Made by a program: the position numbers and the translations under genes. From NCBI GenBank assembly GCA_964618415.1, contig CAZUAT010000006.1, forward strand, positions 1,025 through 65,024: DNA of 64,000 bases, in the 5' to 3' direction. Origin of the DNA: an uncultured Thermoanaerobaculia bacterium (GTDB lineage: Bacteria > Acidobacteriota > Thermoanaerobaculia > Multivoradales > JAGPDF01). This document shows, in pieces, positions 1,041 to 2,760 of the stretch; within the stretch, counting starts at the first letter, position 1, and each line of letters starts with the position of its first letter. Below the pieces are notes generated by a model that did not search any database, had not been told where the DNA came from, and was given only the letters and a program-made list of their open reading frames with translations.

Positions 1041-1744
1041 CGTTCGACCTCCTCCTGCAGCGCTGCGAACAGCCGCCGCAGCAGTTCGCCATCCTTGATC
1101 CCCGGTGCCGACTCCACCCCGGAGGCCACGTCGATGCCGCGCGCGCCGCTCCCGCGCAGCGCCGTCGCCGCGTTGTCCGGCCGCACGCCGCCGGCCACGA
1201 AGACCGGGACCGGGCTCGCCGTCTTGACCAGCGAGCGAGCCCCGGTCCAGTCCCAGGCCTGGCCGGTGCCGCCGCGCCGGGCGCCTGCGGTGGGCGATTC
1301 GAAAAGAAAGGCAAAGACAAAGGCTTTCTGTCGAGAGACAAAGGCGCTGTTCGAGCGTTTGTGGCTGCTCCGGGCTGTCGCGGTCGTGGGAGCGGACGCT
1401 CCCCCGGACGTCACGGATAGCGCGCGCACGGTCCGCTCTCCGAAGCGGGCGCTGACGCTCTGCGGCTCGTCGCCGTGGAGCTGGATCAGATCGAGGCCGA
1501 CCTCTCCGGCGACCTCCTCGATCCAGGCCGGCGGCTGGTCGACAAAGACGCCGACCACACGCACGGCGGGATCGGCGAGGCGCGCGGCCTCGGCCACGGC
1601 GCGGGCACGCTCGAGGTCAGCAAGGTGCCGCGGCGAGCGCGGCCAGAAGTTGATGCCGACGAAGCCGGCACCGAGCGTGGCCGCGAGGGCGCCGTCCTCC
1701 GGTCGCGTCACACCGCAGACCTTCACCCACGGCGAGTCCGGCAT
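1037..1744 (-). CDS. trpF: phosphoribosylanthranilate isomerase
   Basis: Inner part of ORF 1037..2257. It starts [18 protein letters not shown] and contains [16 protein letters not shown] and VAGGVRPDN. It has an ATGA overlap with trpB and its start lies 3 nt after the trpC stop. It contains a low-GC segment (1299-1360) that makes one loop longer than in the TrpF proteins I remember. Confidence 0.9.
1299..1360 (+). repeat. low-GC purine-rich element, copy A (inside trpF)
   Basis: The sequence gaaaagaaaggcaaagacaaaggctttctgtcgagagacaaaggcg is an island of A/G in a roughly 70% GC gene. Positions 1307-1328, AAAGGCAAAGACAAAGGCTTTC, match 2489-2511 with one indel. Confidence 0.7.
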
Positions 1745-1746
1745 GG

Positions 1747-2760
1747 TCACTCTCCGTCCCCCGAGTCTCCGAGCAGGTGGCGCAGCTGTGCGGCCGGATC
1801 GTCGGCGAGCAGCAGGCTCTCGCCGATCAGGAACGCATCGAAGCCGGCGGCCGCGAGCCGCTCGAGATCGGCTCGCGTCGCGATGCCGCTCTCGGCAACG
1901 CGCAACGCCCCGCGCGGCAGCAGCGGCGCCAGCGATATCGACCGCTCGAGGTCGACCTCGAAAGTGCGCAGGTCGCGGTTGTTGACGCCGACCAGCTCCC
2001 AGGCCGACTCCCCGTCCTCCGGCCGCAGCAGCGTCAGCTCGCCGGCATCGTGCGTCTCGACCAGCGGCACCAGCCCGCGCACGCGCGCCGCGGCCGCCCA
2101 GCCGCGCAGACTGTCCCGGTCGTAAAGGGCGGCCACCAGCAGAATCGCCGCCGCGCCGGCCTCGGCCGCCTCGTCCAGCTGCCGCTCGCTGACCACGAAA
2201 TCCTTGGCGATCGCCGGCAGACCCGAGGCACGCCGGCAGCGTGCCAGCAGCTTCCACGAGCCGAAGAAGAAGTCGGGCTCGACGACGACCGACAGACAGG
2301 CTGCCCCGGCACCGGCATACGCCTCCGCAAGGCGCTCCGGCACGAACCGCCCCGCGAGCGACCCGAGCCGCGGCGAGCCCATCTTCACCTCCGCGATGAC
2401 CGCGCGCTCCCCCGCCCCCCGCCGCGCCAACAGCGCGGCGATAAATGGGTTCGCCGACGCTGCTGCAGCCGCGGGCAAAGGCAAGGACAAAGGCAAAGAC
2501 GAAAGGCTTTCATCTAAGGGGGCGGCCTGCGGGGCGCCCGGGGCGAGGCCGTAGCGCTCGCGGCGCCGGGCCACGATGCTCCGCAGCACATCCGGCAGCT
2601 CGTCCCCGTCCCTGCCTTTGCTCTTGCTCTTGCCCTTCAACAGCAAGCTTTTGCTTTTGTCTTCGTCGTGGTCTTTGTCTTTTCCCTTCAACAGAAAGCT
2701 CTTGCTTCTGCTTTTGCTCTTGTCTCCAAACAAAACGTCTTTGTCTTTCCCCTGAGCCAT
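1747..2760 (-). CDS. trpC: indole-3-glycerol phosphate synthase with a K/D/S-rich N-terminal extension
   Basis: C-terminal part of ORF 1747..3816. The IGPS core includes VIAEVKMGSPRLG, GVNNRDLRTFEV and ESGI. ATG 2760 overlaps the trpD TGA (TGATG), giving MAQGKDKDVLFGDKSKSRSKSFLLKGKDKDHDEDKSKSLLLKGKSKSKGRDGDE ahead of the canonical LPDVLRSIVARRRE start. An alternative start is GTG 2589. Confidence 0.85.
   Translation of the reverse strand: MAQGKDKDVLFGDKSKSRSKSFLLKGKDKDHDEDKSKSLLLKGKSKSKGRDGDELPDVLRSIVARRRERYGLAPGAPQAAPLDESLSSLPLSLPLPAAAAASANPFIAALLARRGAGERAVIAEVKMGSPRLGSLAGRFVPERLAEAYAGAGAACLSVVVEPDFFFGSWKLLARCRRASGLPAIAKDFVVSERQLDEAAEAGAAAILLVAALYDRDSLRGWAAAARVRGLVPLVETHDAGELTLLRPEDGESAWELVGVNNRDLRTFEVDLERSISLAPLLPRGALRVAESGIATRADLERLAAAGFDAFLIGESLLLADDPAAQLRHLLGDSGDGE
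2475..2520 (+). repeat. low-GC purine-rich element, copy B (inside trpC)
   Basis: The sequence is gcaaaggcaaggacaaaggcaaagacgaaaggctttcatctaaggg. It shares a 22/23-nt string with copy A and lies in the same orientation. Here it is translated in a different frame (DESLSSLPLSLPL). Confidence 0.7.
2611..2757 (-). repeat. tandem low-GC AAG/GAC-rich units, inverted relative to copies A and B; these encode the TrpC N-terminal extension
   Basis: Two imperfect units of about 60 nt are visible on the minus strand: ...GACAAGAGCAAAAGCAGAAGCAAGAGCTTTCTGTTGAAGGGAAAAGACAAAGAC... and ...GACAAAAGCAAAAGCTTGCTGTTGAAGGGCAAGAGCAAGAGCAAAGGC... The GCTTTCTGT core resembles copy A. Confidence 0.7.

Follow-up and report, generated by a model that had tools for sequence, protein, structure and literature searches.

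The first 6 kb of the 64,000-nucleotide stretch of Thermoanaerobaculia DNA analysed here (the window; 71% GC) contain a tryptophan operon on the minus strand, and three patches within it carry copies of one repeat family, which is the subject of this work. The operon runs from trpE (5823-4366) through trpG, downstream of it, and trpD, which ends at a TGA at 2762-2760, into trpC (1747-2760), trpF (1037-1744) and trpB (from 1040). trpC encodes indole-3-glycerol-phosphate synthase in 337 codons, including an N-terminal extension; the assignment rests on PF00218 in homologues, on alignment and on an AlphaFold2 model whose triose-phosphate isomerase (TIM) barrel is confident (mean predicted local distance difference test score, pLDDT, 80). 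trpF encodes phosphoribosylanthranilate isomerase, as judged from alignments and from PF00697 in the neighbouring gene of the related loci L001 and L003 (L003 is the same locus as L015). trpD and trpC meet at a native junction (2738-2772, minus strand) that holds the trpD 3' end with its TGA, the trpC ATG (2760-2758) and the first trpC codons, stop and start overlapping as TGATG. Homologues of TrpC assign the source to the Acidobacteriota, class Thermoanaerobaculia. The best named relatives of the window TrpC are 60-74% identical to it, a protein from a Logan contig is 93% identical, and the window DNA is also present in many activated-sludge, compost and wastewater runs. Our comparison set comprised about 165 loci from the same class (Thermoanaerobaculia, Acidobacteriota).

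The original prediction drew attention to two near-identical plus-strand strings, and both are there: AAAGGCAAAGACAAAGGCTTTC at 1307-1328 and AAAGGCAAAGACGAAAGGCTTTC at 2489-2511 differ by one 1-nt indel. They lie antisense in the minus-strand genes trpF and trpC and in different frames, trpC reading DESLSSLPLSLPL. The tandem units that it placed in the opposite orientation at 2611-2757 were recovered by a repeat search as two 45-nt copies 51 nt apart, and the same search gave a tandem 51-nt periodicity at 2630-2725. No other stretch of the window is as long and as low in GC as the patches at 1286-1354, 2473-2523 and 2612-2771 (47-53% GC versus 71%), and one motif is common to all three, in both orientations and in different reading frames. 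An 18-mer allowed up to 3 mismatches had four matches, against 0.00 expected from 100 dinucleotide shuffles. The purine-rich unit core is AAG RGC TTK CTG TTG AAG GG, and the pyrimidine-rich box is its reverse complement. The similarity is thus one of nucleotides and not of peptides, as had been proposed, since the same box is translated in three frames: CCCTTCAAYRGAARNCTTTCG reads P-F-N-G-S-L-S in most trpC genes and P-S-T-E-N-L-S in the trpC of L026, and the box in trpF reads S-L-Q-(Q/W)-N-V-S. The further claim that copies are complementary to each other within one mRNA also stands, with an inverted repeat at 2473-2501 and 2607-2635 that is 79% complementary and a second inverted relation, from the repeat search, between 1307-1343 and 2679-2715.

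At the start of trpC the family forms an N-terminal extension of codons 1-53 (MAQGKDKDVLFGDKSKSRSKSFLLKGKDKDHDEDKSKSLLLKGKSKSKGRDGD; 2602-2760, minus strand), built of tandem purine-rich units with the core GCTT(T/G)CTGTTGAAGGG. On the minus strand these are unit0 (2748-2722), unit1 (2721-2683), which contains AAGAGCTTTCTGTTGAAGGGA, and unit2 (2682-2632), which contains AAAAGCTTGCTGTTGAAGGGC; a purine-rich tail segment follows (2631-2602). The units are 27-51 nt long, and their complementary partners in the window lie 100-1350 nt away. Across the array a single frame is open, that of trpC, and the tail is probably translated. The predicted peptide is rich in Lys, Asp and Ser, has pLDDT values below 50 for residues 1-52 and is shared only with P0001, the TrpC of strain L001; other TrpC proteins begin at about "LPDIL". 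An exhaustive phmmer search of 1.84 billion representative proteins with the tail peptide (53-55 aa) gave 0 matches, and a word-indexed search, a method probably blind to low complexity, gave one candidate and none that scored.

The tail changes quickly between strains. Over about 150 nt it differs at four sites in the 97%-identical strain L001 and at nine in a variant from run X8, where the flank in the same contig differs at 4 of 934 nt, so that the repeat region evolves roughly 10 times faster than its flanks. Most of the changes are exchanges between AAA and AAG, which are synonymous and also neutral opposite U. In the tail, Lys is written AAA eight times and AAG six times, versus two and 16 in the neighbouring genes. 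Strain variation and codon use fit a young, repeat-driven sequence. A separate block of divergence between the window and L001 is clustered in the middle of trpC (window 1960-2300; alignment columns 500-870), with a 12-nt indel and identical flanks; run X15 carries the same variant block as L001. This block looks like a recombination mosaic.

The open frame could be taken to mean that the protein is what is selected, the disordered tail and the longer loops described below conferring on the two enzymes a property that they otherwise lack, for instance in solubility, interaction or localisation. The frame has been kept open, the tail is conserved between two strains, and its differences are enriched at third positions, with synonymous Lys changes at five of nine sites in X8 and three of four in L001. 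Because an exchange of A and G opposite U is also neutral for pairing, this third-position bias does not discriminate. Other observations speak against protein selection: between species the peptide is poorly conserved but the nucleotide core is well kept, sister species have the array as a small open reading frame (ORF) of its own and L006 lacks it, the trpC loop and trpF translate the same DNA from the opposite strand and in different frames, and the tail has no homologue in the protein set searched. We regard this explanation as very unlikely.

The two remaining patches are loop inserts. In trpC, the insert in the alpha0-alpha00 loop (2473-2522, minus strand) consists of the box CCCCCTTAGATGAAAGCCTTTCGTC (2522-2498), homologous to a conserved P-F-x-G-S-L-S box of relatives, and then a (TTTGYC)n run (2497-2473) that encodes SLPLSLPLP; in the AlphaFold2 model TrpC residues 77-84 and 91-94 have pLDDT values below 50. 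In trpF, the patch GCCTTTGTCTCTCGACAGAAAGCCTTTGTCTTTGCCTTTCTTTTC (1301-1345, minus strand; box core 1338-1319) is the reverse complement of the unit core and precedes the conserved "FLxES...GGTG". The unit profile matches it at 1314-1343 on the plus strand (E 0.018), and orthologous boxes are present in the trpF of L003, L004, L036, L006, L026 and L092. The suggestion that these loops are unusually long was borne out: the distance from alpha0 to AEVK in trpC is 189 nt versus 141-156 nt in most relatives, and in trpF the segment exceeds that of most relatives by about 20 aa. Both inserts align to loop gaps of orthologues, in open frames and outside the barrel. In trpF of L092 (1415-1880) we also observed an insert of about 150 aa, in which sense units come first and then a roughly 90-nt repeat, present three times in tandem, with a box-like segment in every copy.

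Replication slippage has left marks in these patches. Tandem Repeats Finder reports period-6 and period-12 arrays at 2474-2507, 2618-2637 and 2656-2682, unit number differs between species, and the fast-evolving repeat region changes mostly between AAA and AAG. It could therefore be argued that slippage is all there is, and that the resemblance between patches is a by-product of (AAAGRC)n composition with neither a shared origin nor a role in RNA; that whole-segment duplex energies are no better than those of composition-preserving shuffles would agree with this. Composition does not account for the non-repetitive core GCTTTCTGTYGARRG, however, which is common to the trpC tail units and the trpF patch and conserved across species. 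The box is moreover conserved in relatives that have no hexamer run, and the 16-20 bp arms of other clades, described below, are not of low complexity. Slippage, one of the explanations offered in the original prediction, thus accounts for the hexamer extensions and for a unit number that ranges from 0 to about 8 but leaves the core motif unexplained, and as the whole story we consider it quite unlikely.

How far does the family extend? The three patches occur without indels in contigs of four independent public runs and are all carried by L001, and they are therefore not assembly artefacts. A unit profile built from 17 units was run against the window together with 85 loci (940 kb), and against 80 loci from metagenomes (286 kb). 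It detected no further copy in the 64 kb of the window outside trpC and trpF. Over the 1.2 Mb of related loci, every match at E<0.1 fell at one of three sites: the spacer between trpD and trpC, where the orientation is sense, and the loops of trpC and of trpF, where it is antisense except for sense copies in L002 (trpC) and L092 (trpF). About 100 kb of non-trp DNA from unit-bearing genomes contained no copy. One look-alike had been proposed next to a cold-shock gene, but we do not regard it as part of the family: this purine-rich tract (56047-56091, plus strand), which spans the stop codon and 3' flank of csp copy 1, has no core motif and is not matched by the unit profile at E<=10. The gene is one of two tandem 67-aa cold-shock protein genes on the minus strand (56078-56281 and 56526-56729) that differ at few residues, and a pyrimidine-rich sequence directly follows the stop codon of csp copy 1.

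This distribution bears on another explanation, that the repeats are a small non-autonomous palindromic mobile element, comparable to Rickettsia palindromic elements (RPEs) or miniature inverted-repeat transposable elements, which inserted in frame and at a junction and has a genome-wide family. Copies in both orientations and in different frames, located in surface loops and at a junction, are what such an element would leave, and low GC with non-preferred codons (AAA 8 and AAG 6 in the tail versus 2 and 16) looks foreign. Local hairpins of unit plus box are found in the trpC loop of L002 and of L019/L005 and in the trpF loop of L092, and only there, and copies of the motif also occur in hisI (L008, L067, L013) and at the start of trpE (L019, L005). 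The element should nevertheless be dispersed, and it is confined to trpC and trpF in the window, with no unit-profile match outside trp genes in about 1.2 Mb. Units of 27-51 nt in tandem are unlike RPEs, and no terminal inverted repeats or target-site duplications were seen. In trpF, the GCCTTTGTC motifs of the window stand where L003 and L004 have other codons, with no change in length, which argues against simple insertion. Finally, in one group of relatives the 5' arm of the complementary pair is the native coding end of trpD, with no insert. A coloniser of coding sequence of the kind first proposed is hence unlikely.

We next consider pairing. In the minus-strand transcript, the inverted repeat gives a predicted long-range helix within trpC, with 5' arm GGGCAAGAGCAAGAGCAAAGGCAGGGACG at 2607-2635 and 3' arm at 2473-2501. 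The two arms form 23 Watson-Crick pairs, 4 G.U pairs and 2 A.C mismatches, and a local fold of 2440-2770 brings them together around the alpha0 codons in both the minimum free energy (MFE) and the centroid structures. unit1 and the trpF box can form a contiguous 12-bp helix. A 1.49-kb fold (1285-2775), run without a shuffle control, joins units (the unit0 region) to the trpF patch, and the tail to the loop of trpC, again in both MFE and centroid. The comparison of duplex energies with shuffled controls, proposed as a check on such helices, was equivocal. Whole-segment RNAduplex gave z-scores of -0.2 and -1.1, and the local fold gave -1.86, with 5 of 100 shuffles as good. Whole-segment RNAduplex runs of spacer against loop or trpF, in shuffles and in cross-species matrices alike, were swamped by non-specific GC pairing and are uninformative. 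In L003, the fold contains a spacer-loop helix of about 60 bp that encloses the Shine-Dalgarno (SD) sequence and the GTG start (z -3.49; 0 of 100 shuffles as good).

Pairing is also predicted where trpD and trpC are adjacent, in 15 loci of one sister group (the L011 group). There, when the whole locus is compared with the trpC box in reverse complement, the best match is found about 130 nt upstream of the box. This 5' arm takes in the final codons of trpD, its TAA stop and the SD of trpC, and the box itself lies about 100 nt inside trpC, in the codons of the alpha0-alpha00 loop. The arms read CTG AAA AGC TTC CRG TAA AGG and CC TTT ACY GGA AGC TTT TC. GAAAAGCTTCCRGTAAAGG pairs with CCTTTACYGGAAGCTTTTC over 13-24 perfect bp, and no control window is as good. 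Searched from the other side, the best partner of the trpD-stop region in the 5' part of trpC is again the box, with 9-24 contiguous bp across the 15 loci and at least 13 bp in 11 of them, and the longest of these helices beat all of the 40-200 control windows drawn per locus. RNAalifold predicts the helix as well (columns 21-40 with 141-160), with 95.5% of cells paired versus 42-60% when the partner is slid, and it is present in the MFE structure of L011 (z -1.99). Because both arms are coding and conserved, the complementarity itself is the main evidence. Third positions of the box in the L011 group are not clearly more conserved than background (mean entropy 0.75 bit); only a rare TTT codon stands out.

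Other clades have arms of their own. The 5' arm and box are GAAAAGCTCCAGTTAAGG and CCTTAACTGGAGCTTTT in L063, AAAAGCTCCATAGAAGGG and CCCTTCTATGGAGCTTTT in L019, GAGCTCCATGGAAGGGG and CCCTTCCATGGAGCTC in L005, and GGCTTTCATTGAAGGG and CCCTTCAGTGAAGGCC in L002. When an arm is paired with its own box, the L011 group, L063, L019/L005 and L002 give helices of 16-20 bp, against a mean of 7 and a maximum of 11 bp when arms and boxes are exchanged between clades.

The units of the window also resemble the junction that they adjoin. Local alignment of the window junction with unit1 scores 30, against a maximum of 16 in 400 control windows from the same locus, and aligns GAGCTTCCGGTGATGGCTCAGGGGAAAGACAAAGA with GAGCTTTC--TGTTG---AAGGGAAAAGACAAAGA. 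Units of L036 and L002 likewise score 20 against their own junctions, versus 16 and 14 in controls. The units are therefore read as duplicated 5' arms. A profile of the L011 arm did not reach the window units, because the profile is short and the sequences are too divergent; the link between units and junction rests instead on direct alignment to the window junction and on the intermediates L002, L036 and L063.

What happens between trpD and trpC in sister species is informative about the tail. In L003, L004 and L036 the two genes are separated by 184-526 nt, and this spacer is one open frame whose start overlaps the trpD stop (ATGA or GTGA) and whose stop overlaps the trpC GTG (GTGA); in L036 it has 175 codons. 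Unrelated long spacers (L023, L062, L063) have stops in all frames. The spacer ORFs carry the core GACTT(T/G)CTGTTGAAGG once in L004, twice in L003 and about 8 times in L036. L092 has a chain of two small ORFs with overlapping ATGA/GTGA at both ends, and L006 has a small ORF without any unit. Unit number accordingly runs from 0 in L006 through 1 in L004, 2 in L003 and 3 in the window to about 8 in L036, whose spacer also holds a decayed direct duplicate of the trpC 5' end. Since the same core is found in the sister spacer ORFs, the window tail is a small ORF fused in frame to trpC, the downstream stop of the array having been lost. Neither the Lys-rich, low-GC N terminus of TrpC nor the small ORF between trpD and trpC is a gene-calling error.

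Several further features of these loci were observed. The 3' part of the spacer ORF is conserved (L003 9955-10015, L004 8385-8445, L036 2040-2100, L006 195-255) and contains a 9-bp hairpin, GGCCAGCCC-nnn-GGGCTGGCC, with a variable loop (TCC, GGA, GGC or TGC), followed in order by GGCCGGRAACSGGCC, the SD GGGAGG and the stop/start overlap TGGTGA; the window lacks this part. In L006, about the first 135 nt (1-135) repeat the ensuing trpC start region (196-330) exactly, as its reverse complement, and this inverted copy at the contig end is probably a fold-back assembly artefact. In L003, no gene is called at 8213-8809, the expected site of trpG, where L004 and L005 have a 200-aa glutamine amidotransferase.

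Taken together, we find it somewhat more likely than not that the repeats are arms of a helix coupling trpD and trpC which were multiplied locally, by duplication and slippage, and kept in frame at permissive sites where they can still pair. The data show the repeats and their complementarity, their confinement to the trp operon in the DNA sampled, the helix in relatives with its co-variation between clades, and the preservation of frame; the coupling function and the direction of the duplications are inferred, and the scheme would run as follows. At the unexpanded junction, as in the L011 group, the predicted helix would mask the ribosome-binding site of trpC. A ribosome finishing trpD would melt it, and translation of trpC would therefore be coupled to that of trpD. 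In the window lineage the junction may then have been duplicated in tandem into three units, each with an SD-like GAAGGG and, in the trpD frame, the old TGA. In sister species the array is a small ORF of its own, chained to its neighbours by overlapping stop and start codons, and in the window it is joined in frame to trpC as a disordered tail of 52 residues. The boxes can be read as duplicated or extended 3' arms, the trpC box having been lengthened by hexamer slippage and a box-like copy lying in a trpF loop. Such copies could persist at structurally permissive sites with both frame and pairing ability kept. Of the explanations in the original prediction, a long-range RNA duplex comes closest to the evidence; that it may have originated in a helix between the trpD stop and the trpC SD had not been seen.

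A number of results weigh against the duplication of coupling-helix arms. In the window, the z-score of the local fold is marginal and the whole-segment duplex energies are no better than shuffles. Within the window clade, spacer-loop scores between species equal those within a species, with no species-specific co-evolution of the arms, and the arm mismatches (39 G.U versus 28 A.C, not significant, plus 24 transversions) show no clear preference for pairing. The covariation score of the L011 group is matched by 84 of 500 shuffles, and 3 of 19 pairs have double changes. The trpD end of the window pairs poorly with its own box and the tail-loop helix stands in its place, so that the ancestral helix has decayed in the window. 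Boxes persist in L006 and L026, although their spacers have no units, and pairing with units is thus dispensable. Lastly, the units of L003 and L004 have no significant likeness to the trpD end. The cross-species scores, the mismatch counts, the boxes that lack units and the whole-segment energies speak in particular against strict selection for pairing of the duplicates.

Could the unit and box instead travel as a pair? A 5'-arm-like motif, GAAAAGCTCGGTAAAGGGAAGG (E-K-L-G-K-G-K), occurs inside an extended hisI (phosphoribosyl-AMP cyclohydrolase/phosphoribosyl-ATP pyrophosphatase, PRA-CH/PRA-PH) in L008, L067 (about 2666-2689) and L013 (about 2813-2855), and in L008 a box-like CCCTTTACTGGAAGC lies about 250 nt downstream of the motif (the L008 sites are 981-1000 and 1228-1242). 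Copies of the module thus seem to have reached other parts of the his-trp supraoperon. At the start of trpE in L019 (2869-2918) and L005 (1261-1305), a box-like ATGGAAGCCTTTTC is followed by (TCT)9-10, which encodes poly-Ser; in composition, this region is the complement of the (GAGAAGAGAAAAGCA)n repeats that these genomes carry in their trpC loop. It is conceivable, though we think it doubtful, that unit and box form a self-propagating regulatory module of one operon, made up of an SD-bearing arm and an anti-SD box. Template switching or gene conversion might spread such a module to hisI, to the start of trpE, to the junction of trpD with trpC and to the trpC and trpF loops. It would rewire long-range mRNA pairing and the translation stoichiometry of the operon, and would create new small ORFs and protein tails.

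Established forms of trp control were also considered. A cmscan of window positions 900-3100 against Rfam 15 returned nothing at E<=1, and a known trp regulatory RNA (leader attenuator, T-box or TRAP site) or other Rfam family was set aside as having no covariance-model match. Promoter and terminator scans found no promoter-like or terminator-like sites. An internal promoter and TRAP-like binding to (G/U)AG repeats were dropped, there being no supporting feature for either. A leader-peptide attenuator was dropped as well: the tail has no Trp codons, and the small ORFs of L003 and L004 have a single terminal one.

To our knowledge, nothing is known of trp-operon control in Acidobacteriota. If duplication of coupling-helix arms is the correct explanation, the locus would provide a concrete and testable example of translational coupling in this phylum. 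It would also mean that a cis-regulatory mRNA helix can shape protein sequence, the P-F-T-G-S-F-S loop conserved in TrpC of this class being constrained by its pairing with the end of trpD, and that essential enzymes can acquire N-terminal tails and loop inserts, and operons small ORFs, when helix arms are duplicated.

How does the family compare with known systems? Long-range helices or stop-start coupling operate between the MS2 coat and replicase genes, in the E. coli IF3-L35-L20 operon and, with overlapping stop and start codons, at trpE-trpD and trpB-trpA of E. coli. The junction described here resembles SD-masking coupling in having the upstream stop and the downstream SD in one arm with the complement inside the downstream gene, in its stop/start overlaps (TGATG, ATGA, GTGA) and in a predicted helix that encloses the start codon. 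It differs in that duplication of the arms has produced tandem arrays in frame as well as copies in the loops of two enzymes, and fusion of the window array with the gene downstream means that re-initiation would no longer be needed. With hexanucleotide microsatellites the family has in common (AAAGRC)n and (GYCTTT)n runs, a unit number that differs between species and a raised substitution rate; slippage explains growth of the repeats but not a conserved non-repetitive core with complementary partners. RPEs, in the description given in PMC3184786 (citing Ogata et al. 2000), are in-frame repeats of about 100-150 bp dispersed genome-wide in unrelated genes. On the features covered by that description, our repeats are like RPEs in being nucleotide-level repeats in coding sequence, in different frames, at permissive positions and capable of forming hairpins, and unlike them in that no dispersal was detected, no discrete ends were seen here and one arm is native trpD coding sequence. 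Mycobacterial interspersed repetitive units (MIRUs), as outlined in the same source (PMC3184786, after Supply et al. 1997), are tandem units of 40-100 bp between operon genes; they form an ORF whose two ends overlap the stop and start codons of its neighbours, and a genome has about 40-50 such loci. To the extent of that outline, the two families are alike in their tandem intercistronic units (here 27-51 nt), in a small ORF that overlaps both neighbours and in variable copy number; the units described here differ in that they were seen only in the his-trp operon, belong to another phylum and have complementary partners inside the neighbouring genes.

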